From NCBI GenBank assembly GCA_030648835.1, contig JAUSGT010000001.1, positions 551 to 64,550 of the forward strand: a DNA stretch of 64,000 bases, written 5' to 3'. The number at the start of each line of letters is the position of its first letter. Positions within the stretch are counted from its first letter, which is position 1. Under the pieces are notes generated by a model that was not told the DNA's origin, made no database searches, and saw only the letters and a list, made by a program, of their open reading frames with translations. Of this stretch, positions 16,376 to 37,910 are shown in pieces. The position numbers and the translations under genes were made by a program. Origin of the DNA: Candidatus Moraniibacteriota bacterium (lineage in GTDB: Bacteria > Patescibacteriota > Minisyncoccia > Moranbacterales > UBA1568).

Positions 16376-16462
16376 CTGTCATTCTGAGTGAAGCGAAGAA
16401 TCCCGTAAATAAAAGGTTCTTCTTTGCCTCAACGAGATCCTTCACTACGTTCAGGATGACAG
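16376..16462. repeat. MITE-like palindromic element, family copy A (termini CTGTCATyC...GGATGACAG)
   Basis: Homologous, in inverted orientation, to the element at 34715..34820. Terminal inverted repeats are present. Confidence 0.5.
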
Positions 16463-16511
16463 ATAATTTTTTGTTGAATTAAAATTTGGGTAGCTCACTT
16501 TAAGTCGAGGT

Positions 16512-17846
16512 TTACCCTCGAATCAGGGCAAGCAGCTCGGCTTTTTTTTCTTCCAGGAGTTTTTGCGTGTTGGCTTCGAGGTTGAGACGCAGGAGGGGTT
16601 CGGTATTGGATGGGCGGACGTTGAACCACCAGTCGGGGTAGTCGACTTTCAGTCCATCAAGTTCGTGTTGTTTGCCGTCGCTATATTTTTCTTTTAGTTT
16701 TGCCAATATGGCATCTTTATCTTTGACTTCGCTATTTATTTCACCGGAATGAAAGTAACGCTTCAGTTCCGAAACGAGTTGGGAAATAGTTTCCCCAGAT
16801 TCTGCCATGAGATTGAGGAGGAGGAGGGCGGCCAGCGTACTGGCTTCCGCGAAAGAATTTTCCTCGAAGTAGTAATGTCCCGACAGTTCGCCGGCGAAGA
16901 TGGCATTCTCTTCGCGCATCTGTTTTTTGATATTGGCGTGGCCTACTTTGCATTCGATAGCTATGCCACCATTTTCTTCGATCATTTCTTTGACGGCGCG
17001 CGAGGAACGGAGGTCATAGAGGATAGTGGCGCCGGGGTGTTTTTTGAGAATGATCTTTGCCAGAAGTCCCGTCACCAAATCCATGGGGATGATTTCGCCC
17101 TCTTCATCGACAAAGCCGACACGATCCGCGTCGCCATCGTACGCGATGCCGAGATCGGAGTGTGATTCTTTCACTTTTTCACAAAGTTCAGCGAGTGTTT
17201 CGGTCTTAAGCGGATTGGCTTCATGACACTCGAAAGCGTGTTCCATGTCGTTGTAGAGATTGACGATTGTGAGGTTGTCCGGGAATTGCTCGTAGATGGG
17301 GAGCTCCAAGACGCCCATAGCGTTCGCAGTGTCGATGACGATGGTGAAACGTTTGTCCTGAAAATCCGCGAATGAAGTGAAATAGCCATAGTAGGCCGGA
17401 CAGATATCTTCGGATGTCATCGTACCTTTGCTCTCTACTTCTTCCCACTCTGCTTTGAGGGCAAGGTCGCGGATTTCCTTGAGGCCGGAGTTTTCACCGA
17501 CCGGGATGGCTCCGCGCAAAGCGATTTTCATGCCGTTGTACTGGGGGGGATTGTGTGAAGCGGTGAGAGAAATGGCGGCATCGATATCGAGGCGGCCAGC
17601 GGCGAAATAGACCATGGGTGTGGTGATGATGCCGAGGTCGAGCACATCGACTCCGGCGTCCATCACGCCGCGCGTGAAACTCGCGAAAAGACTCGGGCTG
17701 GAACTTCTGATATCACGACCGATGCCGAGACGTTTGGGTTCGAGATGCGCGACCACCGCTCGGCCGATATTGTAGGCATCGTCTTCATTGATCTCATCCG
17801 GGTAGATGCCGCGGATATCATAGGCTTTGAAAATGCCGGGGTTCAT
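16512..17846 (-). CDS. manB: Phosphomannomutase/phosphoglucomutase
   Basis: 'FKAYDIRGIYPDEINED' N-terminus and the active-site 'TASHNPPQYNGMK'. 444 aa. Confidence 0.85.
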   Translation of the reverse strand: MNPGIFKAYDIRGIYPDEINEDDAYNIGRAVVAHLEPKRLGIGRDIRSSSPSLFASFTRGVMDAGVDVLDLGIITTPMVYFAAGRLDIDAAISLTASHNPPQYNGMKIALRGAIPVGENSGLKEIRDLALKAEWEEVESKGTMTSEDICPAYYGYFTSFADFQDKRFTIVIDTANAMGVLELPIYEQFPDNLTIVNLYNDMEHAFECHEANPLKTETLAELCEKVKESHSDLGIAYDGDADRVGFVDEEGEIIPMDLVTGLLAKIILKKHPGATILYDLRSSRAVKEMIEENGGIAIECKVGHANIKKQMREENAIFAGELSGHYYFEENSFAEASTLAALLLLNLMAESGETISQLVSELKRYFHSGEINSEVKDKDAILAKLKEKYSDGKQHELDGLKVDYPDWWFNVRPSNTEPLLRLNLEANTQKLLEEKKAELLALIRG

Positions 17847-17983
17847 ATGGTCGTAGTAAAATTACGATTTTATTATACCACAGAGAGTTTGACCGAAAGC
17901 CTTTTTCCTGCGAAGATAAGTAATACTTTTGATAGCGGAGTTTGGAAATCGAGTTTTGATTATTGGTGATTTACTTATAAATT

Positions 17984-19033
17984 ATGTCTCTCAAAGTCGG
18001 CATCGTCGGACTACCTAATGTAGGTAAATCAACACTTTTTAAGGCGCTGACGCGCAAAGCGGTGGATATCAGCAACTATCCTTTCTGCACCATCGAGCCC
18101 AATGTCGGTATCGTGGAAGTGCCCGATCTGCGTCTGGCGAAACTTGCCGCGCTATCTAAGAGCAAAAAAATTGTTCCGGCAGTGATCGAGTTTGTCGATA
18201 TCGCCGGTTTGGTGAAGGGGGCCAGTGAGGGGGAAGGTCTCGGCAACAAATTCCTTTCGCACATCCGGGAGGTGGATGCCATTGTGGAAGTGGTGCGGGT
18301 GTTCCCGAACGAAAAAATTATTCATGTTCACAATACGATTGACCCGTTGCATGACCAAGAAATTGTGGAGACGGAATTGATTCTTGCTGATTTGGATACC
18401 GTCACCAAGGTGCAGGCACGGTTGGAAAAGGAAGCCCGCGGTCAGAATAAAGAAGCGCTCGCCAAATTACCGGTACTGAAAAATATAGAGCAAGCGTTGG
18501 CTCTGGGGAAACTGGCTTCGCAGGCCGTGTTGACCCATGATGAAACGACCAAGGTGTTGATTCGTGAACTAACTCTACTCACGATGAAGCCTATTCTCTA
18601 TGTGTACAATGTGGCGGACGTGTCAAAACCATTGTCACCGGAACTCGAGAAGCGTCCTCACGTGAAGTTGGATGTCAAGATAGAAGAAGAGTTGATAGAA
18701 ATGTCGGCTGAAGAAATGAAAGAGATGGAACTGACATCGCATTTGGGGGATCTCATTGTTCAGGCGTACGCGCTTCTTGGGCTGATGACGTACTTTACCA
18801 CGGGGGAGGATGAGACACGGGCGTGGACTATTCGGCGGGGATCGACGGCGCCGCAAGCGGGAGCGGCTATTCATGGTGATTTTGAGGAAAAATTCATTCG
18901 GGCGGAAGTCATTCACTTTACCAAACTTTTGGAAGCCGGCTCCTGGAGCGCCGCTCGTGATAAAGGATCGCTTCGTCTGGAAGGCAAGGAGTATATCGTA
19001 GAGGACGGGGATGTTATCGTGTTCAAGATCTGA
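17984..19033 (+). CDS. ychF: Ribosome-binding ATPase YchF (Obg-family GTPase)
   Basis: '[19 protein letters not shown]' G1 motif and a C-terminal TGS domain. 349 aa. Confidence 0.9.
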
Positions 19034-19168
19034 TATGTTGATTAACAGTTAACTGTTGCCTGCTGACTGATGGGGGGTGTTGACATCTTTTTCGAAACAC
19101 TCTTTTATTTTGACAACTTTTGTCGTATACTAAACATATCTAATTAATAAACATACATCCCAGTTACC

Positions 19169-19597
19169 TTGAAAGAAGGTAACGGGATAAACAAAAATAT
19201 GTATGAAGAACAGCCTTCGTCTTCGCGACCGCTGAGAGTCGCTTTGTTGGTGTTATTTTTCGTTCTGCTCGCAGCGCTGGTTCTCGTTATCTTGACGCAG
19301 AAGGGTTTACTCGGTAAGAAAACCGGAACCACCATCCAGTCTCAAACAGGGACCACTACTCCAACAGGAAATCAAAGGCAGGCAACGTCTGGTGAGGCCG
19401 TTCCCGCCGCCACCTCGCAGCCTGTTTTTTCGGAAGAAGTTCAAAATCAATTTAAGGCAATACAGGATCAGGTCAATGCAGGCACAATCACTCCTGAAGA
19501 AGCTTCAAAACAGCTGAATTCACTCAACATTCCTCCTCCGCCGATTCCACCTGAAATCCAGAAGCAAATTGATGAAGCGACAAAAGCTCAACAGTAG
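19169..19597 (+). CDS. Small N-anchored hypothetical protein (paralog of the 28074 gene)
   Basis: 142 aa. The N-terminus 'SSRPLRVALLVLFFVLLAALVLVILTQKGLLGKKTGTT' is near-identical in pattern to that of the 28074..28646 product. T/Q/P-rich linker. Confidence 0.55.
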   Translation: MKEGNGINKNMYEEQPSSSRPLRVALLVLFFVLLAALVLVILTQKGLLGKKTGTTIQSQTGTTTPTGNQRQATSGEAVPAATSQPVFSEEVQNQFKAIQDQVNAGTITPEEASKQLNSLNIPPPPIPPEIQKQIDEATKAQQ

Positions 19598-19950: not shown

Positions 19951-22347
19951 ATGGAAAAAAATACAAAAACAGGCAAGAAAAAAAATTTATTTCGAATACT
20001 CTTCCCCTTTATGAAAGGTAGAACGGGAAAAATCCTTTCATTTTTCGCTTCGCGGAGGCGTGATTATTTTTTTGTGTTTCATTCTCTGATGCGGGGGAGG
20101 AAAAACATAAAAAAATACGCTTATTCCGGCGGACTGATTTTTCTTTTTGCTATCGTTCTCTCCTCGACCGTTTATTTTCAGGACCGGCGTTCTCATGAAT
20201 CTGCCTCGTCGGTGGAAGTTGGCTTTTTCTCTCTTTCTCCCAACGGTTCTCTCGGAGGTGAAATTCTCCCGGCTTCCTGCGAATCTGGTACTATTCATGA
20301 GATGTCTGGCTGTGACATGACCTTTTGGGCTGATAGCACATCACTGCCTTATGGCGGGAGTACCAGCTTACATTGGTACGTACCCACAGGGAATGTGAAT
20401 GCTTATGTCGGTGTTATGAATTCTCATCCCGGCTATCCCGATGGCTTGGAAATTGGTCATATTCAAAGCTGTGTTGCTTCGGGTGACTGGAGCGGTGATC
20501 AAAACGCCAGACCTTATCCTGAAACATACTCTTATTGGTCAACCATCGGTGGTGGTTATCATTTTTATGCTCGACAAAGTGACCCAGGCACAGGATCCTT
20601 AACTTCAACCAAGACGTATAATTTAACCTGCACCATCAACTATCCGGCTTCAGGGGGACAAGATGTGGTGACGAAAAGCGTGACGGTGAATGTTGCGCCG
20701 CATCCTCCCGCTGCCGCCATTTCTGCTGTGCCCAACACGATCCCGTGGAATAGCGCGTCTTTACTTATTTTGGACTCGCAATACTCTACGCGTTGTGGAC
20801 TGGGATATTATGACTATTCCGGAGTTTGGAACAATTCTTCGATAACTCCCAATACAACGATCTACCAATCCACGGGGCCGCTTACTGCCAATCGGACCTA
20901 TTATTTCACCTGTGACAATGGCACTCAAAGCAACCCTGGTGGTTGGCAGCCCGTTGCTATTACTGTTGATCCCGCGCCTACTTCATCCATTTCTGTCTCT
21001 CCTCCTAATCCCGTACCCAATGGCGCCAATCCTAGCTTCACGCTGAACACGAATGCCACAGCTTCTATCTGTTATGTCCGGCATATATTTCCGAATGGTG
21101 TGTGGGACTCGTGGGGTGTGGATAACGCCACCCCGGGTGCTCCGGGTGGAACGTACTATCCCGGACCACAAACCTATTCCGGTACTCATTATGCCGCTTC
21201 TTATTGCTACAATTCCCTTTGGAAGGGACCTACCGTCTGGACGTATACGGGCTTCACTGTTGATCCGGCGCCTACCGTCTCCGTCTCTATCTTACAGAAC
21301 CCTCCTGTACCTTACGGGAGCAACCCGGGTTTCAAACTGGAATCGCAAAATACCGCCGGAGGTACATGCTACATCCAAGTGGATGGTGCCTATCTCACTG
21401 ACGGAACTGATATCTATTTGCCCACATCTGGGACATTTTATCACGGTGCCTTTACCTCACCGGGAACGCATAATTACCGGGCCTTCTGTTACAATTCTGT
21501 AGGGTACGGTACTGGTTGGACGCCTCCAGCTCCGACGAATTATTATTATTTTACCGTCGACCCCGCTCCCACTGCCTCTATCTCTCCAAATGTGACCATA
21601 CCGTATGGGAGCAGTACCACACTCACTCTTTCCAATACCAACTCTTCAACGTGTTATCTGTACAGCACGGCCACTGGATGGGATTACACAAACCGTGCCG
21701 GTACCACCTCTTACAATACAAGCCCTCTGACCGCCACCACTTCCTATACATATCATTGTACGAATGGATATGTTTGGAGTGATAATTATCTTGGCGCTAA
21801 CAATCCAGGCTATCCATGGGCTACGGTTACTGTCGAACCGCCACTACAGCTGTGTCGTAATATAGGAGGAACCTATCAAAAAATTGCAACTCAGGGCGGC
21901 ACGGCTGGTTTTGAGTTGCTCGTTCATGGAGAAGAGTCTGCAATACTTAGGACATATCTCAATAATGCGAATAATTGTTCAGGAAGGGATATAACAGATC
22001 AAACAATTTTTGTCGAGAAAAATAATCCACAAGATGTTATCAGGGTAACTGGTTCGAATCCAAAAATTGTTGAAGCGACTTTGGATATATTACCTCCCAA
22101 AAAGCAGTCAGGAACAGAACGAATTGTTGTCTCCTATAACGGACAGGAGGTTAGTCGAGACATTAACGTTGATGTAGCTGTAGTAGAAAATTGTGTATGG
22201 GACTGTTCGCTAACAGAGAAAGACCATTGTTCAGTGGATGCCAATAATGAAAAGCTAAAGTACAAAGTAACTGACAGCTGCGACATCGAACAGTCTTGCG
22301 ACGGCAAAAGATACTGTGATTACAATTACAAGGAAGTGTCGCCGTAG
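19951..22347 (+). CDS. Large secreted/surface protein with tandem Ig-like repeats and the conserved Cys-rich C-terminal cassette (P1)
   Basis: 798 aa. Internal hydrophobic anchor, three tandem 'FTVDPAPT...' beta-sandwich-like repeats, and a C-terminus '...SCDGKRYCDYNYKEVSP'. The true start may be the internal MRGRKN. Confidence 0.6.
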   Translation: MEKNTKTGKKKNLFRILFPFMKGRTGKILSFFASRRRDYFFVFHSLMRGRKNIKKYAYSGGLIFLFAIVLSSTVYFQDRRSHESASSVEVGFFSLSPNGSLGGEILPASCESGTIHEMSGCDMTFWADSTSLPYGGSTSLHWYVPTGNVNAYVGVMNSHPGYPDGLEIGHIQSCVASGDWSGDQNARPYPETYSYWSTIGGGYHFYARQSDPGTGSLTSTKTYNLTCTINYPASGGQDVVTKSVTVNVAPHPPAAAISAVPNTIPWNSASLLILDSQYSTRCGLGYYDYSGVWNNSSITPNTTIYQSTGPLTANRTYYFTCDNGTQSNPGGWQPVAITVDPAPTSSISVSPPNPVPNGANPSFTLNTNATASICYVRHIFPNGVWDSWGVDNATPGAPGGTYYPGPQTYSGTHYAASYCYNSLWKGPTVWTYTGFTVDPAPTVSVSILQNPPVPYGSNPGFKLESQNTAGGTCYIQVDGAYLTDGTDIYLPTSGTFYHGAFTSPGTHNYRAFCYNSVGYGTGWTPPAPTNYYYFTVDPAPTASISPNVTIPYGSSTTLTLSNTNSSTCYLYSTATGWDYTNRAGTTSYNTSPLTATTSYTYHCTNGYVWSDNYLGANNPGYPWATVTVEPPLQLCRNIGGTYQKIATQGGTAGFELLVHGEESAILRTYLNNANNCSGRDITDQTIFVEKNNPQDVIRVTGSNPKIVEATLDILPPKKQSGTERIVVSYNGQEVSRDINVDVAVVENCVWDCSLTEKDHCSVDANNEKLKYKVTDSCDIEQSCDGKRYCDYNYKEVSP

Positions 22348-22450
22348 AGGGGGAGAGAGAATCGTGAGTTGAGAAAGATGTATCAAAAAAAAGGGGCACC
22401 ACTCGCCCCTTTTCGTGTTATAATGACAACAAACATATACACAAGTAATT

Positions 22451-24199
22451 ATGCGTATCGAACTTGATCAGCTCAAAAGTTTTTTGCTTGATTCTAATCT
22501 CATCCCCAAGGAAAAAGTGGAACAGGCAGCGGCAGAAGCCGAGAAGAATGAGAAAAATCTTGGGGTACTCCTTTTGGAGAAAAAACTCATTCAAGAAGTG
22601 GAGTTGCAGAAAGTGTACGCCTATATTCTGGGTATTCCGTTCGTGGATCTTTCCAAGGAAACCATACCGATCGAGATACTGCAGATTGTTCCGGAGCTCA
22701 TTGCCAAAAAATACAATATTGTTTCTTTCGAAAAAACCGGAGTCAATCTGAAGGTGGCCATGCTCAATCCCGAGGATCTCCAGACGATCGATTTCATCAA
22801 GAAAAAAACCGGCTTGAAAATTGTGCCGTGTCTCACCACTCAGGAGAGCATCCAGGCGATACTTCGTCAGTATGAGAAGAGTCTCAAAGCGGAGTTTGGC
22901 GACATTTTGACAGGGGAGATCAAACCGGACGGCGAGAGTCAGGACGATGAGGATCTCGAGCAAGTGGCTGCGGGTCTGCCCATCATCCGTATCGTGGATA
23001 CGCTTTTGAAACACGCCATTCTCGAATCGGCAAGCGATATCCATATCGAACCGGAAGAAAAAGAAGTGCATGTCCGTTATCGGATCGACGGCGTTTTGCA
23101 TGACGCGATGACTTTGCCCAAAGACGTGGCGGCCGGCATTGTGGCACGCATCAAAGTGCTCTCCAATTTGAAACTGGATGAACATCGTCTTCCACAGGAC
23201 GGGCGATTCAAGATCCAGAGTGACGAGTACAAGATCTCTTTCCGGGTCAGTATGTTGCCGGTGTTTGACGGGGAGAAAATTGTGATGCGTCTTCTGGACG
23301 AGACCTCCAAAGGGTTGACGCTCGAGAAAATGGGGCTGAATGGCCAGGCACTGGAAGCGGTACACCGGGAAATCAGCAAACCGAACGGTATGATCCTCGT
23401 CACCGGTCCGACCGGTTCCGGAAAAACAACGACGCTCTATACCGTGATGGATATTTTGAATACCCCGGAAGTGAATATCTCGACCGTCGAGGATCCGGTA
23501 GAATATCGGATGCCGCGCGTGAATCAGACACAGATCAATCCGAAAGTCGGGATGACGTTTGCCGCGGCGCTGCGCTCCCTTTTGCGTCAGGATCCGGACA
23601 TCATCATGGTGGGGGAAATTCGCGACCAAGAAACCCTGGAAATCGCCATGCACGCGGCGATGACGGGGCATCTGGTGCTTTCTACTCTCCATACCAACAA
23701 CGCGTCCGCGACATTGCCTCGGATGCTCGATATGGGAGCGGAACCGTTTCTCATCGCCTCAACGGTGAATGTCATTATCGCTCAGCGTCTCATCAGGCGC
23801 CTGTGTGTCGAATGCCGCAAGGCCTATCAGCTCGACAAAAAAGAAATCGAATCACTTCAAAAATTCTATACTATCGACGATATTTTCACCTATCTCAAAA
23901 ACGATCCTGCCAGTAAGAAATATGTCGAGAAGGCAAAGAGTTGGGAAGAAATTACCATGTACAAGCCGGTCGGCTGCGATAAGTGCGGAGGTGAAGGCTA
24001 TCATGGTCGCAACGGTATCTATGAGGTTCTGCCGATGACCGACGGTATCCGCAAGCTGGTGACGCAGTCGGCGTCGACCGAGATGATCGAGACCGAAGCC
24101 AAGAAGAGCGGGATGGCGACGATGGTGGAGGATGGTTTTTCAAAAATCGTGCAGGGGATGACCTCGCTCGAAGAAGTGATGCGCGCGACGAAGGAGTAG
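22451..24199 (+). CDS. pilB: Type II secretion / type IV pilus assembly ATPase (GspE/PilB family)
   Basis: 582 aa. N-terminal GSPII_E N-domain, Walker A 'GPTGSGKTTTLY', and the tetracysteine motif (CVEC...CDKCGGEG). Confidence 0.9.
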   Translation: MRIELDQLKSFLLDSNLIPKEKVEQAAAEAEKNEKNLGVLLLEKKLIQEVELQKVYAYILGIPFVDLSKETIPIEILQIVPELIAKKYNIVSFEKTGVNLKVAMLNPEDLQTIDFIKKKTGLKIVPCLTTQESIQAILRQYEKSLKAEFGDILTGEIKPDGESQDDEDLEQVAAGLPIIRIVDTLLKHAILESASDIHIEPEEKEVHVRYRIDGVLHDAMTLPKDVAAGIVARIKVLSNLKLDEHRLPQDGRFKIQSDEYKISFRVSMLPVFDGEKIVMRLLDETSKGLTLEKMGLNGQALEAVHREISKPNGMILVTGPTGSGKTTTLYTVMDILNTPEVNISTVEDPVEYRMPRVNQTQINPKVGMTFAAALRSLLRQDPDIIMVGEIRDQETLEIAMHAAMTGHLVLSTLHTNNASATLPRMLDMGAEPFLIASTVNVIIAQRLIRRLCVECRKAYQLDKKEIESLQKFYTIDDIFTYLKNDPASKKYVEKAKSWEEITMYKPVGCDKCGGEGYHGRNGIYEVLPMTDGIRKLVTQSASTEMIETEAKKSGMATMVEDGFSKIVQGMTSLEEVMRATKE

Positions 24200-24258
24200 C
24201 CAATTGCTTGATTACTTTCAAATTTTATTAATTTTTAAGCAGAGGGAATATAGGTAAG

Positions 24259-27983: not shown

Positions 27984-28073
27984 GGGGACTGGCGGTTTTC
28001 TATTCTTGGTGATTCTTCTGGATGGAGTATACTGAAAACAGTTACGTTTTATAAATGAAACATACACAAGAAT

Positions 28074-28646
28074 ATGCTTGAACAGTCTTCACGACCGTTG
28101 AAAGTTGCTCTATCAGTATTATGTGTCGTCATGCTTGCGGTGCTTGTTCTTGTTATTTTGGGAGAGAATGGGGTGCTCGGAAAGAAAACAGTAATTACCC
28201 AGCCCGCCGTTACTACGAGCCAGTCTCAACCACAAACTGTACAGCCGGTACCGCCGACAGAAGTGCGCAGAGTACTCGGTACGGTAGAAAAAGTTTCCGG
28301 TCAAGAGATCATGCTTAAGGATTTTAGGAAAATATCGAGTATTGTTACCGCTGTATCCGATCAATCGGAGCGTATGTTTGTCACCGTCGATCAGTCGACG
28401 ATTATTGAACGCTTTACGTATAAAGACGCAACAACCATAGCGAAAGAGCAGGATGCTTTTGTTAAAAATATTCAAGAAATACAACGACAAAACCCGTCTG
28501 TCCCTCCGACACCGCCGGAACCTTTTACGTTTGAAAAAATTACATTGAGTGATATCAAAATTGGTGACAAAGTTATGGCGTCTTTTGGGGAGGATATATC
28601 AAACCTTGCGACTTTCACAGCGACAAAAATAGAAGTACGAAATTAA
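28074..28646 (+). CDS. Small N-anchored hypothetical protein (paralog of the 19169 gene)
   Basis: 190 aa. N-terminus 'SSRPLKVALSVLCVVMLAVLVLVILGENGVLGKKTVIT'. Confidence 0.55.
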   Translation: MLEQSSRPLKVALSVLCVVMLAVLVLVILGENGVLGKKTVITQPAVTTSQSQPQTVQPVPPTEVRRVLGTVEKVSGQEIMLKDFRKISSIVTAVSDQSERMFVTVDQSTIIERFTYKDATTIAKEQDAFVKNIQEIQRQNPSVPPTPPEPFTFEKITLSDIKIGDKVMASFGEDISNLATFTATKIEVRN

Positions 28647-28650
28647 ATTT

Positions 28651-30411
28651 ATGAGATCAAACCATTTTCATCTAAAATTTATTGCAGTAGCGACATTGTT
28701 TTTGTTTGTTGGGATTTTCCCGATTCGACAGACTCATGCTGCTGCTGACGGCACCCTTTTTGGTTGGGGGATGAATTTCTACGGCAATCTCGGCTTAGGT
28801 TGGGCCAGCCACGGTTATAGCAATGCCCTAGGTTTTTCCCGTGACTATGTCCTTTCTCCGACCCAAGTCGGGATGGCAACAAATTGGGCCAGCATCTCGG
28901 CGGGAAACTTTTTTGTTATGGCCACAAAGGCCGACGGCACCCTGTGGGGTTGGGGGAATAATTCCTCCGGTCAGCTCGGTTTAGGCTACATTTCTAACCC
29001 GCCTTACTCTTGGGATTCTGGGTATTCTACCGGTATTTGGTCCCCGACCCAAGTCGGATCGGGAACAAATTGGGCCAATGTCGCGGCAGGGGACAGTTTC
29101 GTTTTAGCCGTAAAAACCGACGGCACCTTGTGGGCTTGGGGAGGTAATCCTGATGGACAACTTGGTTTAGGTGATACAATTAGTCGTTCGGTACCAACTC
29201 GGGTCGGGACAGATACAAATTGGTCTGGTGCTGTGGGGAAGATTTCCGGAGGATATGCAAATTCTGCGGCTGTAAAAACAGACGGTACTATTTGGGTTTG
29301 GGGAAGTGATGTATTTGGCGAGCTCGGTCAAGGCAACACCAATGGTGCCATCAGTCGCTATTATCCGACCCAAGTCGGAACGGCGACGAATTGGGACAAA
29401 GTTTCGGCGATGGGTCAATTTACCGTTTTAGCCACCAAGACCGACGGCACCCTTTGGGCTTGGGGAGATAATATGTATGGCCAGGTTGGTCCCGGGTATG
29501 TCGACTACTCTGGTAATGGTCAACATTCTGTACCGGCTCAAGTTGGGACGGGGACAAATTGGAGTAGTATTGGTCAGGGAGATACATACTCTATGGCTTT
29601 AAAGAGGGATGGCACTATGTGGGTCTGGGGTAGGGTTTCTATCCCGTTCGCCGTCAATTGTGATGTGTCGGGCTGCTATGGGATGACAGGTTCTCCGACC
29701 CAAGTTGGGACGGCAACGGATTGGCGTAGTTTTGGAGCATATCCCTATCCCACCAGCGTGGCTGCTATAAAGACAGACGGTACCCTGTGGGATTGGGGGA
29801 ATAATTGGTATGGTAATCTCGGCTTAGGTGATACCGTCACTCGCAATTCCCAGACCCAGGTCGGAACGGGAACAAATTGGGACAGCGTTACGTCGGGCAT
29901 ATATGGAACTATGGCAATAACAGGCACACCTCCTCCTCCAACCACCCTCAAAGCATGCGTGAGCTCCTGTACTACGACGGGAGCCAGTGCCATCACGAAT
30001 TTGACTATGGCTTACAATAGTACGAGTACTATCGCAGCTTGTTACAACACCGCCGCAGCCTGTGATGCGCCCGATAACACTGGGAATGTTACTCTTTCTT
30101 CTGCATGGGCAGAGTCCGGGACAGACGTTGTTTCTCTCTCGGATCAAAGCAATAGTACGAAGAAATTCCAATCAGGAACAGCATATGGCACGGAAACAAT
30201 CACTATCACATATCTGACACAATCAGTAACACTGAATGTGACCGTACCTTGCATCGAAACGATGACATGCGCTGCTGAACAGACAAAAGTCTGTTCCGAT
30301 AAAACAGTGCCCACTGGAAAAACTCTTTCCGGAATCTGTGGAACAGTCGACTGCGGCGGCAAGCCTGGCAAGAGGTATTGTGATTTCAACTGGAAAGAAG
30401 TGGCGCCGTAG
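28651..30411 (+). CDS. Secreted RCC1-repeat (beta-propeller) protein with Big_2-like domain and the conserved Cys-rich C-terminal cassette (P3)
   Basis: 586 aa with a signal peptide. At least seven 'DGT[LI]W[AGV]WG.N..GQLGLG' RCC1 repeats. The C-terminus 'CGGKPGKRYCDFNWKEVAP' is about 70% identical to the P2 tail. Confidence 0.7.
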   Translation: MRSNHFHLKFIAVATLFLFVGIFPIRQTHAAADGTLFGWGMNFYGNLGLGWASHGYSNALGFSRDYVLSPTQVGMATNWASISAGNFFVMATKADGTLWGWGNNSSGQLGLGYISNPPYSWDSGYSTGIWSPTQVGSGTNWANVAAGDSFVLAVKTDGTLWAWGGNPDGQLGLGDTISRSVPTRVGTDTNWSGAVGKISGGYANSAAVKTDGTIWVWGSDVFGELGQGNTNGAISRYYPTQVGTATNWDKVSAMGQFTVLATKTDGTLWAWGDNMYGQVGPGYVDYSGNGQHSVPAQVGTGTNWSSIGQGDTYSMALKRDGTMWVWGRVSIPFAVNCDVSGCYGMTGSPTQVGTATDWRSFGAYPYPTSVAAIKTDGTLWDWGNNWYGNLGLGDTVTRNSQTQVGTGTNWDSVTSGIYGTMAITGTPPPPTTLKACVSSCTTTGASAITNLTMAYNSTSTIAACYNTAAACDAPDNTGNVTLSSAWAESGTDVVSLSDQSNSTKKFQSGTAYGTETITITYLTQSVTLNVTVPCIETMTCAAEQTKVCSDKTVPTGKTLSGICGTVDCGGKPGKRYCDFNWKEVAP

Positions 30412-30425
30412 GAAAAGTATTTCAG

Positions 30426-33002
30426 TTGTTGTATATTACAATCAAAATGCAAACAGAAAAACAATTACAAAACCTAATATTTTTAAGCATTGGTATAGTG
30501 GCAGCATTTGTTTTTGCTGTTCCGTTTTTTGTTCTTGCGCAGGAAACAGAGGGACCTGTTTTTGGTGACACAGTCCAGAGTAAAGCCGTGCTTTTGGCAA
30601 CAGTGAATATTTATAATGCTACTTTCATACAAACCGGAAACAATTTCTCCCTTTCCTTTGATTTAACGAATAAGGTTGGTGTTCAGCCGGGGATCAAATA
30701 CAGCGCCGTTCTCATAAAAGAAACAAAAGAGGGGCAGGTTGTTGTGGATGAACATGTCTATGACGAAGTTGTGGCTCTCGGTGAGAATAGCTCTGTGCAT
30801 AAAATAGTCGACTATACAGCCCCAGCCAATTTGGAAGGCGAATATACTCTTCTTATTTCAAGTAAAAATACGAGTGATTTTCCTTTTGGGCAAATCTTGC
30901 TCGGTACAGTAAACCTTCAAAAGAGCGCCACTGATGCGAATCCAATTGCTATAGACACACAGAGTTGCTACCTGACAGTAGAAGGGGAAGAAGGCCAGCC
31001 GCACCACGTCCCTTCTCAGGGCGTTGTTATTTCTTCTGCCGAAAATTTACAAAGTAATTGTTTGGTAGAGAATACTTCGAGTTCTCCAGTCGTTACCACA
31101 CCTTTATTTACCACTCGCGCGCGTTCAAATTTTGGCGGTACAGTAGACGCGCAAGGTGGTGATATCGGCTCCATCACACTGGCTCCGTACGAAAAGAGAA
31201 TGGTTGTCACCGCGCTCCCGAAACCGTTACTGTCTCAATCCTACTCTGTGAATCTGCAATATGGATCAACAAGCAATAGAATCTCCTATTATTACGTTAT
31301 TTCGGGTGGTGGCGCGACGATTCAAAGCATCCTTTTTGATAAAGACAATTATACAAAAGGAGAAACAGCGGATATTTCGTTTATGTGGTCACCATCCGTC
31401 GATACTCTTCGTAGCTTTTCTCAGGGAACAACCCCAAAACCAACTACATTTTCTGTCACTATTTTACTGGTTGACGAAAACGGAAATTCTTGTGCCAATC
31501 CTTTCAATCAATCCGTTACCAGCCAAGAAATGCGGTTGGAGCTTACGATACCTATGACTGCTTCTTGTCTTCACCCGAAAGCGGATGTGACACTCATGGA
31601 CGCACAGTCAAACACGTCATCCCACGTCTCATTTGAGACAGGGGTGGCATCTCCATCTTTGCAAAAAGGACCCAATGTAAAAATTGTCGCTCTTTCCGTG
31701 TTTGTGATCCTCTTATTCATCATAGGCGCCTTTGTCTTTTACAGAAAAAGAATTCGTATTTCTCTGCCGCCGACCTTGCTCTTCTTTATTGTCGTTATGG
31801 GGAGTATGTTTCTTGGCCCAGGCAGCGCGAAAGCGGATACATTTGCTATGGGTTACGGAGTTTACACAGTGTCAATCAATAAAGCCTCATATGCACCTGG
31901 TGAACCAATGACAATTTATGGTTCGGTGCGAAACCTCGTACCTTCTCTTACTTTTGAATTTCGTCTTTTCTATGCTATCGATACAAGTATTTATAATTCA
32001 TGTCCAAGTTGTCGCAATGTTTTTGATGTAGGTGTCGGGGGATCTCCTTATTCAACTTCTGTCAGCGCTTTTGCCCCATCTGGTGTAGGGGGGCATAGTG
32101 TTACTTTTCTTGCCGCTGATGCTGTGTTTGCGGGGGTTCATACGTTAGCGGGTGGTTTTACTGTTACATCGGCGTGCGCCCCAGATCAAGGTACTGCGTG
32201 TCCTTCAACAACTGCCAACGTTTGCGGTCAGACTCAGTCCGACGGCGCTATTCAATGCGATGGTTCTTGTTCATCAACTACGCCACCGATAACTACTCCC
32301 AATGGTACTACCTATCGTGCTTCCTGTGTCTCTTCCACCAACGCCTGTGATCAGACTCAGTCCGATGGCACTATTCAATGTGATGGTTCTTGCTCATCGA
32401 CTCCTCCACCGAATTCAAATTGTCCGCTTCCTACTCTCGATTTTTCTGCCAACCCGACCACAGTTACGTCTGGTGATTCATCAACCATCACCTGGACGAC
32501 AACTAATGCTACCTGGTGTTGGGCATGGTCGGATAATACGATGAACGATGGGAACTGGACAATTTTTGATGATGGCACCCCGGGTGATAATTGGAAAATT
32601 AGTACTGATGGAACTCATACTCAAACTGTCTTTCCGACTGCTTCCACTACGTATAGTATGGAATGCGGAAACAGTATCGATGCTTCTTCCGGAGCAAAGC
32701 AAGCCACGGTGACGGTGCCTGCGAGAATAAATGGTGGATGGTCTCTTTGGTCAAACTGTTCTTCTACAACTTGTGGAACGGATGGGACACAAACGAGAAC
32801 GTGTACCAACCCCGCTCCTTCGGGCGGCGGTGCGGATTGTGTTGGACCTCTCACTCAGAGTTGCACCAATCTGCCTTGCTGTATTCCGGATTGCAGCGCG
32901 GCTGTCAATTACTGTAGTGGCACTAGCTTCGATGACAGTTGTGGGGGATCATGCACCGGTACTCGCTTTTGCAATTTCAATTGGAAAGAAGTGGCGCCGT
33001 AG
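30426..33002 (+). CDS. Fusion-like surface protein: an N-terminal paralog of the 24259 anchor protein, an internal TM and signal-like segment, a thrombospondin type-1 repeat and the conserved Cys-rich C-terminus (P4)
   Basis: 858 aa. The signal peptide 'VAAFVFAVPFFVLAQETEGP' resembles that of the 24259 product. An internal stretch 'VALSVFVILLFIIGAFVFYRKRIRISLPPTLLFFIVVMGSMFLGPGSAKA' has TM, basic and signal-peptide-like character. The TSP1-like stretch is 'WSLWSNCSSTTCGTDGTQTRTC'. The protein ends 'FCNFNWKEVAP'. Confidence 0.6.
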   Translation: MLYITIKMQTEKQLQNLIFLSIGIVAAFVFAVPFFVLAQETEGPVFGDTVQSKAVLLATVNIYNATFIQTGNNFSLSFDLTNKVGVQPGIKYSAVLIKETKEGQVVVDEHVYDEVVALGENSSVHKIVDYTAPANLEGEYTLLISSKNTSDFPFGQILLGTVNLQKSATDANPIAIDTQSCYLTVEGEEGQPHHVPSQGVVISSAENLQSNCLVENTSSSPVVTTPLFTTRARSNFGGTVDAQGGDIGSITLAPYEKRMVVTALPKPLLSQSYSVNLQYGSTSNRISYYYVISGGGATIQSILFDKDNYTKGETADISFMWSPSVDTLRSFSQGTTPKPTTFSVTILLVDENGNSCANPFNQSVTSQEMRLELTIPMTASCLHPKADVTLMDAQSNTSSHVSFETGVASPSLQKGPNVKIVALSVFVILLFIIGAFVFYRKRIRISLPPTLLFFIVVMGSMFLGPGSAKADTFAMGYGVYTVSINKASYAPGEPMTIYGSVRNLVPSLTFEFRLFYAIDTSIYNSCPSCRNVFDVGVGGSPYSTSVSAFAPSGVGGHSVTFLAADAVFAGVHTLAGGFTVTSACAPDQGTACPSTTANVCGQTQSDGAIQCDGSCSSTTPPITTPNGTTYRASCVSSTNACDQTQSDGTIQCDGSCSSTPPPNSNCPLPTLDFSANPTTVTSGDSSTITWTTTNATWCWAWSDNTMNDGNWTIFDDGTPGDNWKISTDGTHTQTVFPTASTTYSMECGNSIDASSGAKQATVTVPARINGGWSLWSNCSSTTCGTDGTQTRTCTNPAPSGGGADCVGPLTQSCTNLPCCIPDCSAAVNYCSGTSFDDSCGGSCTGTRFCNFNWKEVAP

Positions 33003-33023
33003 AGAGAGTCAATGAAAACAAAA

Positions 33024-33056
33024 AAACACCCTTCGATAAGCTCAGGGTGTTTTTTC
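33024..33056. terminator. Bidirectional terminator between convergent P4 and relA
   Basis: Hairpin 'acaccct-tcgataagctc-agggtgt' flanked by A-run on one side and T-run on the other. Confidence 0.55.
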
Positions 33057-34590
33057 ATTCCGCGATATTCTTGAATTCGTTGTGGCGCAGTTCGTGGTGA
33101 ATATGTGATTTGGCGGTGGATGTTTTGACGAAGTCCAGCCAATCGCGGCTCGGTTTCTTTTTTTCTTTGACGGTGAGAATCTCGATCACTTGGCCGTTTT
33201 GGATGTGATAATCGAGCGGCACCATCTTGCGATCGGCTTTGGCGCCGACGGTGCGATTGCCGACTTCGCTATGGATAGCGTAGGCGAAATCGATCGGGGT
33301 GGCTTCCTCGGGCAACTCGATGATGTCGCCCTTGGGAGTAAAGGCAAAAATATGGTTTTTGAAAAATTCTATTTTCAGTCCTTCCATGAATTCTTTGTCG
33401 TCCCGGCCGATTTCTTTCTGCCACTCTTTCAGTTGTCTGACCCATGTGAGTTCCTTGGGTGGGACAGCGGAACTTTCTTTTCTGCGGAAGAAGAGATTGC
33501 GCCAGCTGGGACGCGCTTTTTCCGTGTACATCCAGTGGGCGGCGATGCCATACTCTGATTCGTCATGCATTTTTTGGGTGCGGATCTGGATTTCCAGAAT
33601 ACGACCATCGGGTCCGAAAATCGTGGTATGCAAGGATTGATACCCGTTGGGTTTAGGGAGCGAAATATAATCTTTGATGCGGCCGACCATCGGTCGGTAT
33701 TCGCGATGAATGATGCCGAGAGCTTCATAGCAATCGGCGATTTCCGGAACGACGATGCGGATGGCGATGAGATCATAGATGCGACTGACATCCATATCAT
33801 GACGCTTCAATTTTTGGTACAGGCGGTAGAGATGTTTGGTCCGCCCGGTGATATCGATGAGTTTGATTTTTTCTTTTTCCAAGACGCCATGGAAAAGTTT
33901 CACAATACGATTCATATATTCCTCGCCCTCATGCATGTAGGTTTCCTCGATTTTTTTCGTTTCCGCGTAGTGTTCGGGTTCGATGTATTTGAAACAGAGG
34001 TCTTCCAGTTCAACCTTGATTTCACCGATGCCGAGGCGGTTGGCGATGGGCGTGTAGATTTCCATTGTTTCTCGGGCGATGCGGAGCTGTTTTTCGGGGG
34101 GGAGATATTCCAGTGTGCGCATATTGTGCAACCGGTCGGCGAGTTTGATAATCACGACGCGGATATCCTGCGCCATAGCCAGGAACATCTTGCGGAGATT
34201 TTCGAGGTAGTATTCTTCTTTGGTGCCGCGCAACTTGATTTTTCCCAGTTTGGTGATGCCATCGATGAGGTAGGCCACTTCGGCGCCAAATTTTTTCTCA
34301 ATTTCGGCAAGCGTGACTTCCGTATCCTCCGGTACGTCATGGAGGATGGAAGCTACGATTGTTTTGGCATCCATGCCGATTTCGGTCAATGTTTTGGCTA
34401 CATGGAGACAGTGAGAAATATACTCAAGTCCGGATTTTCGTTTCTGGCCGTGGTGGGCACTGTCCGCGAAACGATAGGCTTCCGTGATGAGTTTCTGTTC
34501 ATCACTTGAGAAAGGGCGTCCTGTGGCGCTTATGATATCGCTGAGAGTAATCGGAGTGGGCATAGGCAAAAGAAAAAAACGTACATTCAT
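33055..34590 (-). CDS. Bifunctional (p)ppGpp synthetase/hydrolase (RelA/SpoT homolog)
   Basis: HD domain 'HGQKRKSGLEYISHCLHVAKTL...ILHDVPEDT', RelA/SpoT synthetase domain and a TGS domain. 511 aa, with no ACT-domain region. Confidence 0.9.
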   Translation of the reverse strand: MNVRFFLLPMPTPITLSDIISATGRPFSSDEQKLITEAYRFADSAHHGQKRKSGLEYISHCLHVAKTLTEIGMDAKTIVASILHDVPEDTEVTLAEIEKKFGAEVAYLIDGITKLGKIKLRGTKEEYYLENLRKMFLAMAQDIRVVIIKLADRLHNMRTLEYLPPEKQLRIARETMEIYTPIANRLGIGEIKVELEDLCFKYIEPEHYAETKKIEETYMHEGEEYMNRIVKLFHGVLEKEKIKLIDITGRTKHLYRLYQKLKRHDMDVSRIYDLIAIRIVVPEIADCYEALGIIHREYRPMVGRIKDYISLPKPNGYQSLHTTIFGPDGRILEIQIRTQKMHDESEYGIAAHWMYTEKARPSWRNLFFRRKESSAVPPKELTWVRQLKEWQKEIGRDDKEFMEGLKIEFFKNHIFAFTPKGDIIELPEEATPIDFAYAIHSEVGNRTVGAKADRKMVPLDYHIQNGQVIEILTVKEKKKPSRDWLDFVKTSTAKSHIHHELRHNEFKNIAE

Positions 34591-34714
34591 AGTATAGGTG
34601 ACCTTCGAGTAAAAAGAAAGTTAGGGCGCATCTTTCGGTAGAAGTTATAATTAACTAGTCTCAAGTAAACTCTATTTATCCCTCTCTTGAAGGAAGTAAT
34701 AAGTAAAACTTTGT

Positions 34715-34820
34715 TGTCATCCTGAACGGAGTTGAAGCCTGCCTGCCGGCGGGCAGGGATCTCGAAAAGAAGGAACTGTGCTTTCTATAACGGGATTCTT
34801 CGCTTTGCTCAGAAAGACAG
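34715..34820. repeat. MITE-like palindromic element, family copy B
   Basis: Termini 'tgtcatcctgaacg...acgggattcttcgctttgctcagaaagacag' match copy A in inverted orientation. Internal hairpin 'cctgccggcgggcagg'. Confidence 0.5.
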
Positions 34821-34890
34821 AGGATTCTACTTGAGATGGGGTCAATGATTCTTCTTGACAAACGCAACTCAGTTGCGTTAGAGTAAGTAT

Positions 34891-35316
34891 ATGGGATACG
34901 AAGAAGAAATTTTTACCGTATTGAAAACACACCATCTCCGCCTTACAAAGACACGCAAGGCTTTGATAGAGGTTTTTTTTCGGTATGAGGTTCCTCTTTC
35001 CGCACAGGATATTTCACGCGAGCTGTCAAAAATACAGAGAGCCGTCAACAAAACAACAGTGTATCGAGAACTGGAGCGGTTACGGGAAATAGGTATTATT
35101 GGAGCTGTTCAATTGGGAGATCGGAAACAATATTATGAGTTGGCTCTGCGTAGGCACCATCACCATCTCATCTGTTTACGTTGTGCGGTGGTAGAGGATA
35201 TTGATATGGATGAGCGAGCGCTTCTAGGTCAGGAGAAGCGAATACAAGGGGAAAAACACTTTACTATTCTCCGCCATTCGCTTGAATTTTTCGGGTTGTG
35301 TAAAATGTGTAGCTGA
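34891..35316 (+). CDS. Fur-family transcriptional regulator (probably Zur, given the adjacent ZIP transporter)
   Basis: 141 aa. Winged-helix N-terminus 'LRLTKTRKALIEVF...DISREL', a His-rich motif 'HHHHLICLRCAVV' and C-terminal 'CKMC'. Confidence 0.75.
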   Translation: MGYEEEIFTVLKTHHLRLTKTRKALIEVFFRYEVPLSAQDISRELSKIQRAVNKTTVYRELERLREIGIIGAVQLGDRKQYYELALRRHHHHLICLRCAVVEDIDMDERALLGQEKRIQGEKHFTILRHSLEFFGLCKMCS

Positions 35317-35324
35317 AAAATACT

Positions 35325-36074
35325 ATGATAACGGTCTATGTGTATACTTTTGTCGGGGTACTCGTGGTGAGTGTGATTTCTTTGGTGGGAGTATTTATTT
35401 TTTCCTCTCGAGAAGATATCTTGCGAAAATATATTTTTATATGTATCAGTCTGGCAGTGGGGGCGCTCCTCGGTGACGCGTTTATTCATCTGATACCCGA
35501 GGCGCTCGAAAAATCTTCGGACACCACCGCTACCGGTGTCTTCATCATTCTGGGTATCCTCTCGTTTTTTACTTTGGAAAAAGTTCTTCATTGGCACCAT
35601 CATGGCGAAGACGCGAAAGAAAATCATATTCATCCGGTAGGCAGACTGATACTTTTTTCGGATGGTGTCCATAACTTTTTGGACGGTACCATCATTGCGG
35701 CAAGTTTTATGGTGAGTGTTCCGGTAGGTGTCGCTACGACTCTCGCCGTTATCCTCCACGAGATACCCCAAGAGGTGGGAGATTTTGCCATATTGCTTCA
35801 CTCCGGGTACTCGAGGAGACGAGCTCTTGTGCTCAATTTTCTATCCGCTCTTACGGCGTTTGTGGGAGCTGTGGCTTTTTTCGCGTTTGGTGAACTTTCG
35901 AAATCTTTGGTGGATTATTTTATTCCTCTTGCCGCAGGAGGTTTTATTTATATTGCCGCTTCCGATCTTATCCCCGAACTCCACAAAACAAAGCAGGCGA
36001 GACACTCTCTCTACCAACTGGTGGCGGTGCTCTTGGGGGTTCTCGCCATGGTTGCTCTCGCCTTTTTAAACTAG
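35325..36074 (+). CDS. ZIP-family zinc transporter (ZupT-like)
   Basis: 249 aa with eight TM segments and the conserved 'HEIPQEVGDFAILL' metal-binding motif. Confidence 0.8.
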   Translation: MITVYVYTFVGVLVVSVISLVGVFIFSSREDILRKYIFICISLAVGALLGDAFIHLIPEALEKSSDTTATGVFIILGILSFFTLEKVLHWHHHGEDAKENHIHPVGRLILFSDGVHNFLDGTIIAASFMVSVPVGVATTLAVILHEIPQEVGDFAILLHSGYSRRRALVLNFLSALTAFVGAVAFFAFGELSKSLVDYFIPLAAGGFIYIAASDLIPELHKTKQARHSLYQLVAVLLGVLAMVALAFLN

Positions 36075-36111
36075 GATGGTTCTGTCCTGTGAATTACGAA
36101 ACTCCCATTTT

Positions 36112-36190
36112 CTGTCATCCCCGCGAAGGCGGGGATCCAGAATATGGCTTATTTACGAGAACCTAGATTCCCACCTTCGCGGGGATGACA
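36112..36190. repeat. MITE-like palindromic element, related family copy C (about 22 bp terminal inverted repeats, TGTCATCCCCGCGAAGGCGGGGA)
   Basis: It shares the terminal 'CTGTCATCC...GGATGACA' with copies A and B. Its interior is different. Confidence 0.45.
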
Positions 36191-36198
36191 ACTGGGAT

Positions 36199-36239: not shown

Positions 36240-36242
36240 TAG

Positions 36243-37910
<1,668 letters not shown>

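Follow-up and report, generated by a model that had tools for sequence, protein, structure and literature searches.

The three short intergenic palindromes in the window (the whole 64,000-nt stretch of DNA that was analysed) are best explained, with a probability of about 0.7, as gene-less head-to-head pairs of CGTC/TGTC-tagged REPs that amount to a non-autonomous version of an Ssn cassette. Since their termini are shared with Ssn gene cassettes found elsewhere, the window elements correspond to gene-less, REPIN-like head-to-head dimers, and since the same termini face outward around ssn-like genes elsewhere, the window copies are taken to be the form of the cassette that lacks its nuclease gene. 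They are a new example of a known and very widespread repeat, not a new kind of element.

The three copies, A (positions 16376–16462, 87 nt), B (34715–34820, 106 nt) and C (36112–36190, 79 nt), had been listed in a first-pass annotation as a MITE-like repeat family, and all three are present and intergenic. They do form a true family, with conserved inverted ends, a variable interior and no gene. The terminal motif proposed at that time (CTGTCATyC...GrATGACAG) holds as far as the ends are conserved and inverted, but the left terminus of A reads TGTCATTC, the right terminus of B is the degenerate TGTCTTTC, and the conserved block begins at TGTC. Each terminus is a directional module consisting of a TGTC tag, a hairpin with a stem that starts A-T, T-A, and then ATC. 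All six arms start with TGTC and have GTC on the 5′ side of the palindrome and C on the 3′ side, and the tags face outward in A, B and C.

Element A is a head-to-head pair of TGTC-tagged hairpin modules in which both arms are intact. The left arm, A_L (16377–16405, + strand, TGTCATTCTGAGTGAAGCGAAGAATCCCG), carries the T7-A23 and G12-C18 pairs and is separated by a 27-nt spacer (16406–16432) from the right arm, A_R (16433–16461, − strand, TGTCATCCTGAACGTAGTGAAGGATCTCG), which carries C7-G23 and A12-T18. The arms thus differ by two compensated stem pairs (7-23 and 12-18), which suggests that the arm fold has been maintained. Positions 5–12 pair with 18–25 around a 5-nt loop, an assignment backed by covariation, and the stems of A and B include an invariant tandem G/A opposite G/A. 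Element B is the same element in the opposite orientation and decayed, and the inverted homology of A and B recorded earlier was borne out: A(+) and B(−) can be aligned end to end, including their homologous spacers (26 nt in B), with 74 of 79 ungapped columns identical in a gap-lenient global alignment, the best local BLAST piece being 31 nt at 90 % identity. Alignment with A and the predicted folds place a 20-nt GC-rich hairpin, CCTGCCTGCCGGCGGGCAGG (34738–34757, + strand), in arm B_L (34715–34764, + strand), within the 3′ half of its stem. In B_R (34791–34819, − strand, TGTCTTTCTGAGCAAAGCGAAGAATCCCG), the change of A5 to T disrupts the first stem pair.

Element C is a head-to-head pair of NTS-like modules. 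Its left arm, C_L (36113–36140, + strand, TGTCATCCCCGCGAAGGCGGGGATCCAG), has an 8-bp stem (ATCCCCGC/GCGGGGAT), the 4-nt loop GAAG and a CCA-type tail (ATC-CAG, which includes CCA), where the arms of A and B instead have CCC or CTC. The 22-nt spacer (36141–36162) bears no relation to the spacer shared by A and B. The right arm, C_R (36163–36190, − strand, TGTCATCCCCGCGAAGGTGGGAATCTAG), has stem mutations and a predicted hairpin of only −2.9 kcal/mol. The near-perfect TIRs attributed to C are indeed there, as arms of 28 nt whose complementarity is 89 % overall and perfect over a 17-nt core, and the interior does differ from that of A and B. Only A keeps both arms intact; B and C appear to be older insertions in decay.

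Though the terminal motif shared between C and A/B is short, the likelihood that the similarity of the three loci is fortuitous is negligible, given the motif counts, the SRM match, the spread of the 29-mer and the covariation (all described below), the covariance-model ranks and the A/B alignment. The motif TGTCATYC occurs 11 times in the window, against 4.55 ± 2.08 in shuffled sequences, with the extra matches lying in coding DNA. When a covariance model trained on arms from other genomes was run over the 64 kb, five of the six window arms were the top five matches (A_R at 48.6 bits, E 1e-9; A_L at 45.1 bits, E 7e-9; B_R, with one non-standard pair, at 33.7 bits, E 5e-6; and then matches of 14.8 and 13.1 bits, the last being C_R). 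The insertion-disrupted B_L reached only 8.8 bits (E 6.3), below several chance-level matches, and this search returned no significant match beyond the window arms. The window has no further copy.

Comparison with the targets of the Ssn nucleases identified the class to which the modules belong. The search pattern published for the SRM, HGTCWYN(0-2)YYVSBRHN(0-5)WNVSBRGN(0-2)RNCYNB (Chenal et al., Nat Commun 2025, PMC11893778), has two matches in the window against 0.26 in shuffled sequences. C_L fits it exactly and is essentially one compensated stem pair away from the Neisseria NTS CGTCATTCCCGCGMAVGCGGGAATCYRG, and C can be aligned with gonococcal NTS pairs beyond the core. The other five window arms (including C_R, in which the stem mutations abolish the match) and all 130 A-type arms examined from other genomes do not match the pattern. 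Judged by their sequence, the arms of A and B are a variant lying outside it. The Neisseria nuclease SsnA, a single GIY-YIG domain of 94 aa, binds modules of this class solely as ssDNA and cuts a few nt 5′ of the tag; the conserved bases 5′ of the palindrome and the C 3′ of it are critical for cleavage and binding, and DNA bearing an NTS shows reduced transformation (PMC11893778). The NTS/SRM and all window arms have in common the GTC tag and the C that follows the palindrome; the gene-less head-to-head pair is not described as a unit by Chenal et al. (PMC11893778).

The fold within each arm is supported by covariation across 71 distinct arms, in which 98.4 % of cells are paired and double changes occur at all six Watson–Crick pairs, a result reached by none of 500 shuffles. 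In the 130 A-type arms from other genomes, positions 7-23 are T-A in 81, C-G in 47 and something else in 2, and positions 12-18 are G-C in 105, A-T in 21 and something else in 4; control pairs of positions are independent. The C_L hairpin is stable as DNA (−9.7 kcal/mol, z −4.1), but nearest-neighbour DNA folding of A-type arms gives just −0.8 to −1.6 kcal/mol (z about 0), and for these thermodynamics alone favour one long arm-to-arm hairpin over the per-arm hairpins. Whole-element DNA folds have z values of −2.8 (A) and −7.0 (C). Folded as RNA, as the first-pass annotation had suggested, whole A and C are far more stable than shuffled sequences (z −5.3 and −8.9, respectively), with energies of −32.6/−36.7 kcal/mol for A and −47.9/−53.9 kcal/mol for C (z −5 to −9).

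A lies 50 nt past the stop codon of a phosphoglucosamine/PGM-type gene (16512–17846, − strand). B is found between the divergent genes relA/spoT (33055–34590, − strand) and fur (34891–35316, + strand), ending 34 nt before a conserved fur promoter. C lies between a ZIP transporter gene (35325–36074) and the groEL promoter. Of the adjacency to promoters or terminators that had been pointed out earlier, that to promoters is real for both B and C, the latter ending 8 nt before the −35 element of a perfect groEL promoter, but no T run or terminator flag accompanies the elements. An intrinsic terminator reading was rejected, as terminator scans flagged none of A, B and C. A broader role at the RNA level, of the kind suggested for REPs, ERIC and Correia elements, would have long transcribed hairpins act as terminators, insulators or stabilisers of neighbouring mRNAs. 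Such a role would fit the strong whole-unit RNA folds of A and C, the location of A just past a gene end and of C after zip and ahead of the groEL promoter, the frequent position of modules beside structural genes in viral contigs, and the preference for positions downstream of ORFs reported by Di Nocera et al. (PMC3733652). We nevertheless regard it as improbable. The units are not followed by a T run or flagged as terminators, B has divergent promoters on either side, Rfam gave no match (no element reached a family threshold, and the best matches were at chance level, E 0.36–0.93), and SsnA is inactive on RNA (PMC11893778). Furthermore, a 29-mer that stays nearly identical in about 15 phyla, together with covariation that is within and not between arms, points to recognition by a protein.

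B and C are absent from the relA–fur and zip-downstream intergenic regions of two relatives (L122 and L128), and the contigs of the relatives (775 kb) contain essentially none of these elements, though this absence may be overstated because metagenome assemblies break at repeats. As the relatives that lack copies at the same sites share 85–91 % protein identity, the copies are not ancient at these sites. The position of groEL, and with it the order of genes around C, also varies among the relatives, and this is the only hint that relates to the effects on expression or recombination proposed earlier. These comparisons are relevant to the possibility that the elements are inert relics, namely old insertions of REP dimers that decay by mutation in a lineage with no cognate nuclease. 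Damage affects three of the six arms (B_L has its insertion, B_R the A5-to-T change and C_R the stem mutations), no ssn or GIY-YIG ORF was found in the 64-kb window, and Di Nocera et al. (PMC3733652) propose that CGTC families may be heading to extinction. However, A has two intact arms with two compensated pairs, the copies are missing at the same sites in close relatives, and three copies in 64 kb is dense for relics. Hence, we consider this explanation unlikely, though the disabling changes in B_L, B_R and C_R remain a caveat on the reading as Ssn-related REP pairs.

That reading draws on the distribution of the modules in other genomes. Matches to the A-type 29-mer pattern turned up in at least 120 genome stretches, which span about 15 phylum-level groups, and IMG/VR contigs contributed at least 120 stretches for each of the two motif types. 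An inverted partner lies 59–350 nt away, with tags facing outward, for 55 of 130 matches. In the viral contigs, modules often adjoin structural genes. At some loci a gene is enclosed. Cassettes with TGTCAT...ATGACA termini surround a GIY-YIG ORF at L038 and L069 (Pfam PF01541 at 2e-16 and 3e-14, respectively), a GIY-YIG ORF at L057 overlaps a module and is cut by the end of the 8-kb block, and A-type units surround WP_083616022.1, a gene on a Planktothrix plasmid. The bracketed GIY-YIG genes encode proteins of 93–110 aa. Membership of the Ssn family was judged by Pfam PF01541 and homology to gonococcal SsnA, in place of cd10448, and the Ssn-like proteins share 37–45 % identity with the gonococcal SsnA orthologue over the full length, with Y6, Y17 and E64 invariant, and cluster according to motif type. 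A GIY-YIG gene is embedded in, or lies 0–24 nt from, a module at eight loci (L038, L057, L069, L206, L331, L368, L396 and L433), and all seven Ssn-like ORFs in about 3.1 Mb of retrieved DNA are within 0–24 nt of a module. Of 120 genome loci, however, just 3 carry the gene, and of 240 viral loci just 4.

Unbiased clustering of the module-proximal ORFs from these 360 module-bearing loci uncovered no recurring transposase family. The first-pass annotation had suggested looking for a cognate IS200/IS605-type or other transposase, but the gene found between identical termini elsewhere encodes an Ssn-family GIY-YIG nuclease. It had also suggested defining target-site duplications, and A, B and C have no flanking direct repeats. 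Of the MITE-like interpretation, the inverted ends and the lack of a gene stand, but the ends are self-folding, directional CGTC/TGTC REP (NTS/SRM) hairpins and not the simple TIRs of a DDE-type MITE. Inverted ends, a variable interior, an intergenic location and multiple copies would suit classical MITEs derived from a DDE IS, or elements moved by an IS200/IS605-type Y1 transposase or a RAYT, and CGTC REPs are generally laid out like GTAG REPs (PMC3733652). Such an origin is very improbable: the tag is TGTC/CGTC and not GTAG, the enclosed gene is of the GIY-YIG type, no transposase recurs near the modules, Di Nocera et al. (PMC3733652) report none flanked by such repeats, and no target-site duplication is seen at the window elements or at the insertion in L380, which with L425 forms the one clean filled/empty pair.

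The likely partner of the window elements, judging from these shared termini, is an Ssn nuclease. Each arm presents an unpaired (T/C)GTC tag, a hairpin with a stem starting A-T, T-A, and TC with a short tail, and would be recognised in trans by an Ssn nuclease encoded outside the window. With both tags pointing outward, cutting is predicted at one site on each strand, so that the sites flank the unit. In this cell, the units may serve mainly as ssDNA cut sites during uptake or replication, with any effects on neighbouring transcripts being secondary. The same nuclease would also spread the units. More generally, head-to-head pairs may be mobile elements that Ssn GIY-YIG nucleases excise or copy at ssDNA hairpins, much as in the REPIN/RAYT system, and that have spread horizontally across >15 phyla; this proposal, made by analogy, is tentative and we would put the odds somewhat against it. 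An IS-like analogy for Ssn is as far as Chenal et al. (PMC11893778) go on movement. If correct, it would answer the question, dating from 2013, of what mobilises CGTC-tagged REPs and would add a second REPIN-like system with an unrelated enzyme. The three palindromes can in any case be explained and need no longer be listed as candidate regulatory RNAs or as unknown transposons, and two literatures that do not cite each other, on CGTC-REP dimers (2013) and on Ssn/NTS (2025), are linked. The link is based on a variant that the SRM pattern misses and that is very widespread, on the Ssn clade of its own that goes with it, and on the outward termini common to gene-bearing and gene-less units. Pairs of A-type arms and their proteins would be candidates for new ssDNA-nuclease specificities.

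Among known systems, the closest are the CGTC REPs (Di Nocera, De Gregorio & Rocco, BMC Genomics 2013, PMC3733652). They form four families and consist of a short palindrome that bears at one end an unpaired CGTC tag (often TGTC or CCTC), with 8–9-bp stems starting AT, 4–5-nt loops and mostly a CCA tail, and they occur mostly as head-to-head dimers with 20–100-bp spacers, heterodimers being frequent; they include Neisseria dRS3 and Rickettsia RPE-4 and RPE-6, and no RAYT or other transposase was noted as flanked by them. The window elements resemble them in the outer unpaired tag, the 8-bp stem starting A-T/T-A, the loop of 4 nt (C) or 5 nt (A/B), the outward tags, the spacers of 22–27 nt, the heterodimeric arms and the intergenic location. 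C_L and the arms of A have stems and loops of the type described, and B_R and C_R are degenerate versions. The survey spans five phyla, whereas the A-type variant is found here in about 15 further phylum-level groups, and the lineage of the window, apparently from groundwater, lies outside that sampling. The REPINs and RAYTs of Bertels & Rainey, based on GTAG REPs, are alike in that the non-autonomous unit is built from two inverted REPs and a spacer, the same REPs also lie on either side of the partner gene, and hairpins are recognised in ssDNA; they differ in that the tag here is CGTC/TGTC and not GTAG, the enzyme is a GIY-YIG nuclease and not an HUH/Y1 transposase, and mobilisation is only inferred. 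Finally, in the intergenic mosaic elements of Neisseria (dRS3-flanked RS units), the gonococcal NTS pairs next to ssnA are about 106–111 nt long and share the layout of C, but the Neisseria pairs form large arrays of hundreds of copies, whereas the units in the window are isolated and single.

The three palindromic elements that a first-pass annotation had placed in intergenic DNA at 16376–16462 (A), 34715–34820 (B) and 36112–36190 (C) of the window were all found there, and they belong to a known class of repeats, the CGTC-tagged REPs or NTS/SRM motifs. Their description as MITE-like holds, but the partner of this class is a GIY-YIG nuclease and not a transposase. A and B had been called homologous in opposite orientation, and A(+) does align with B(−) over the full length, interior included, the main difference being a 20-nt GC-rich hairpin (34738–34757) inserted into one arm of B. 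The arms of C are 28 nt long and 89 % complementary, and the 22-nt spacer between them is unrelated to A/B. Folding had been proposed as a check, and the whole-unit folds of A and C are far stabler than those of shuffled sequence. No T run follows A, B or C, and none of the three has a match in Rfam at gathering or E-value thresholds.

Each terminus is a self-standing module, more than simply one half of a long palindrome. It is made up of the tag TGTC, a hairpin with A-T and T-A as its first stem pairs, the dinucleotide TC and a short tail. For C, the stem reads ATCCCCGC/GCGGGGAT and the loop GAAG, while in the arms of A and B positions 5–9 pair with 21–25 and position 12 with 18 around a 5 nt loop, and invariant G10 A11 lie opposite G19 A20. 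Pairing was examined in arms from other genomes, positions 7, 12, 18 and 23 being unconstrained in the search pattern. Among 130 such arms, pair 7–23 was T-A in 81, C-G in 47 and otherwise in 2, and pair 12–18 was G-C in 105, A-T in 21 and otherwise in 4; control position pairs were independent. Across 71 distinct arms, 98.4 % of cells were paired and double-sided changes were seen at all six Watson–Crick pairs (6/6), a pairing score of which shuffles and slid registers all fell far short. The left and right arms of A differ by exactly two compensated pairs (7–23 and 12–18), hence the fold of each arm is kept while pairing between the arms is weakened. Nearest-neighbour DNA energies for lone A-type arms (those of the A/B kind) are −0.8 to −1.6 kcal/mol, which does not support a stable hairpin and counts against the fold. 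The evidence for the arm fold is thus covariation and not stability, and the fold presumably relies on a protein.

Only A has both arms intact. The left arm of B is damaged by the insertion, its right arm lacks the first stem pair, and the right arm of C carries stem mutations. When an arm covariance model was run without filters over the 64 kb, five of the six arms were the top matches, the left arm of B scored 8.8 bits, among matches at chance level, and there were no other significant matches. The model was used in place of a generic finder (GTCWY, any hairpin, ATC), which was too permissive and gave many matches in coding regions. TGTCATYC is over-represented in the window (11 matches against 4.55 ± 2.08 in shuffles), and the matches beyond A, B and C are all in coding DNA. 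These extra copies and weak matches to the covariance model or SRM (2510, 2772, 14068, 14270 and 42216) were set aside as chance, being in coding DNA or missing the module.

An exact match to the degenerate A-type 29-mer TGTCATYCTGARYGNAGYGAAGRATCYCG was found at least 120 times among species-representative genomes, against a chance expectation far below one; the source genome of the window is not among the 120 matches listed. Judged from record titles, the matches listed span approximately 15 phylum-level groups, among them Chloroflexota, Acidobacteriota, Patescibacteria/Saccharibacteria, Planctomycetota, Nitrospirota, Bacteroidota, Bacillota, Verrucomicrobiota, Desulfobacterota, Pseudomonadota, Bdellovibrionota and Armatimonadota. 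Of the 130 arms, 55 have an inverted partner at a distance of 59–350 nt; the tags of these pairs point outward and their spacer is not conserved, an arrangement also seen in A, B and C. The A-type core was also found in at least 120 IMG/VR contig stretches, and the NTS-type core, as in C, likewise in at least 120.

The window contains no GIY-YIG ORF and, as had been noted before, no transposase-like ORF. At three of the 120 genome loci listed, a small GIY-YIG ORF lies 0–21 nt from a module. In two of these, a Patescibacteria MAG (L038) and Chthoniobacter (L069), the order is TGTCAT-arm, gene, arm-ATGACA; the termini are those of the window elements and a gene of 93–110 aa stands where the spacer would be, so gene-bearing and gene-less units have their termini in common. 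The L038 cassette protein matches Pfam GIY-YIG at 2e-16; the sole PDB match was 1zg2 (UPF0213, E 0.001), and NCBIfam gave none. A Planktothrix plasmid gene (WP_083616022.1), 59–61 % identical to the L038 protein, lies within arrays of A-type units, and the same place in a sister plasmid holds three units without the gene. These plasmids are p1 of P. agardhii No.66 and p1 of PCC7805, only one of which has the GIY-YIG gene. The arrays lie between an MmeI/PglX-type gene and DISARM drmA, units are also present beneath the annotated MmeI CDS, and 12–14-nt arm ends are duplicated in tandem with 11–18 nt of flank.

Two gonococcal chromosomes in PLSDB contain the SsnA orthologue, a 94-aa ORF between NTS copies and NTS pairs, Ssn being a small GIY-YIG ssDNA nuclease; the records (NZ_CP119140.1 and NZ_CP119142.1, ~2.17 Mb each) are filed as plasmids. 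This orthologue has Y6, Y17 and E64, which the Ssn study (PMC11893778) had mutated. The A-type partners share 37–45 % identity with it, and all three residues are invariant. Viral loci added four Ssn-like ORFs, every one 0–24 nt from an NTS-type module; relatives of the A-type GIY-YIG proteins were also sought in viral contigs, with one weak locus as the result. The partner proteins cluster by motif type, with identities of 54–77 % among NTS-type, 47–59 % among A-type and 37–51 % between the groups. Unbiased clustering of 1150 module-proximal ORFs yielded phage structural proteins and an Ssn cluster, and no transposase family.

The nearest relatives found, from groundwater metagenomes (775 kb of contigs; ZIP protein 45–83 % identical to that of the window), are essentially without these elements. 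In two of them, L122 and L128, B and C are absent from the orthologous relA–fur and zip-downstream intergenic regions, where the fur promoter and operator block is kept; the alignments are too dissimilar to place the empty sites exactly, and show absence only. When joined flanks were compared by BLAST over all fetched loci, most matches were array noise and one clean insertion was recovered (L380 filled, L425 empty), located after a stop codon and ahead of the following ribosome-binding site, with no target duplication.

The proximity to promoters reported earlier was borne out. A lies 50 nt beyond the stop of a phosphoglucosamine-mutase-type gene, with a promoter-like site 67 nt away on the minus strand. 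B is between divergent relA/spoT and fur, with the conserved fur −35 lying 34 nt downstream of it. C is 37 nt downstream of a ZIP transporter gene and ends 8 nt ahead of the groEL promoter, which is of sigma-70 type. That promoter (region 36199–36239, perfect TTGACA-17-TATAAT) overlaps a CIRCE-like operator, TTGGCAGTC-N9-GAGTGCTAA (36213–36239), and groEL (36267–37910) has no groES upstream in the window. The zip–groEL adjacency is found in the window only: in L122 the gene directly after zip is pilX-like, and groEL of L128 comes after ychF. Hence, C stands at one border of a rearranged segment, though a causal role for it is speculation. Look-ups of exact proteins gave matches only in short Logan contigs of run SRR13727527. 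Logan contigs of this run, 100 % identical to the window (34811–36116, 36114–38665 and 23055–34681), break at B and precisely at the GTC tag of C, which could reflect hairpin-related coverage loss, population heterogeneity or another cause.

Other features of the window were recorded. A strongly structured stretch of ~165 nt (2840–3000, plus strand; 25-nt arms 2845–2869 and 2973–2997; RNA MFE −72.7 kcal/mol) just past an FtsW/RodA-like ORF is a candidate non-coding RNA, with no Rfam match at E≤1 and none in the fetched loci. Four neighbouring large ORFs (19951–22347, 25710–27983, 28651–30411 and 30426–33002) with signal-peptide-like N-termini adjoin a PilB-like ATPase (22451–24199) and have in common the C-terminal peptide KRYC(D/N)(F/Y)NWKEV(A/S)P-stop, which may be a sorting or anchoring tag. 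Tandem repeats of 150–186 nt (28744–29891) in the third encode RCC1/WD40_RLD-type protein repeats. A 60-nt direct repeat (38633–38692 and 38836–38895; 98 % identical, 203 nt apart) lies on the 3′ side of the topoisomerase I gene region, and one Logan contig (36114–38665) ends within it. A segment of 50–71 nt with the core GCACCATGCTC(A/G)AAAAA..TTCAAGCCTC occurs three times (10043–10113, 13611–13662 and 61312–61396; 83–86 % identity), one copy being inverted.

We put the probability that A, B and C are Ssn-class motifs at about 0.85. According to the literature, Ssn binds ssDNA and cuts 5′ of the tag. Because the tags face outward, the two predicted nicks, one per strand, would bracket the unit. 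As this geometry equals that of the cassettes, a gene-less pair could behave as a non-autonomous form dependent on Ssn supplied in trans. That Ssn actually mobilises the units is a tentative proposal, which we hold to be somewhat less probable than its converse.

Chenal et al. (2025; PMC11893778) defined NTS and the wider SRM pattern. In their work, SsnA bound NTS as ssDNA only and its cut fell a few nucleotides upstream; the bases preceding the palindrome were important, as was the C that follows it. DNA carrying NTS was less efficient in transformation, and NTS-ssnA-NTS was likened to an IS (PMC11893778). The left arm of C matches the SRM pattern exactly; the A/B arms fail it, as do all A-type arms elsewhere (0/130). 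That paper cites neither Di Nocera et al. (2013; PMC3733652) nor REPINs. CGTC-tagged REPs, the tag often being TGTC, had already been described by Di Nocera et al. as having 8–9-bp stems starting AT, 4–5-nt loops and a CCA tail, and as arranged chiefly in HH dimers whose tags lie outside, with 20–100-bp spacers and frequent heterodimers, while "apparently lacking a dedicated transposase"; Neisseria dRS3 and Rickettsia RPE-4/6 were equated with them (PMC3733652). What is modestly new here is the link between the CGTC-REP and Ssn/NTS literatures, together with a widespread motif variant that lies outside the published search pattern and has its own clade of Ssn homologues.
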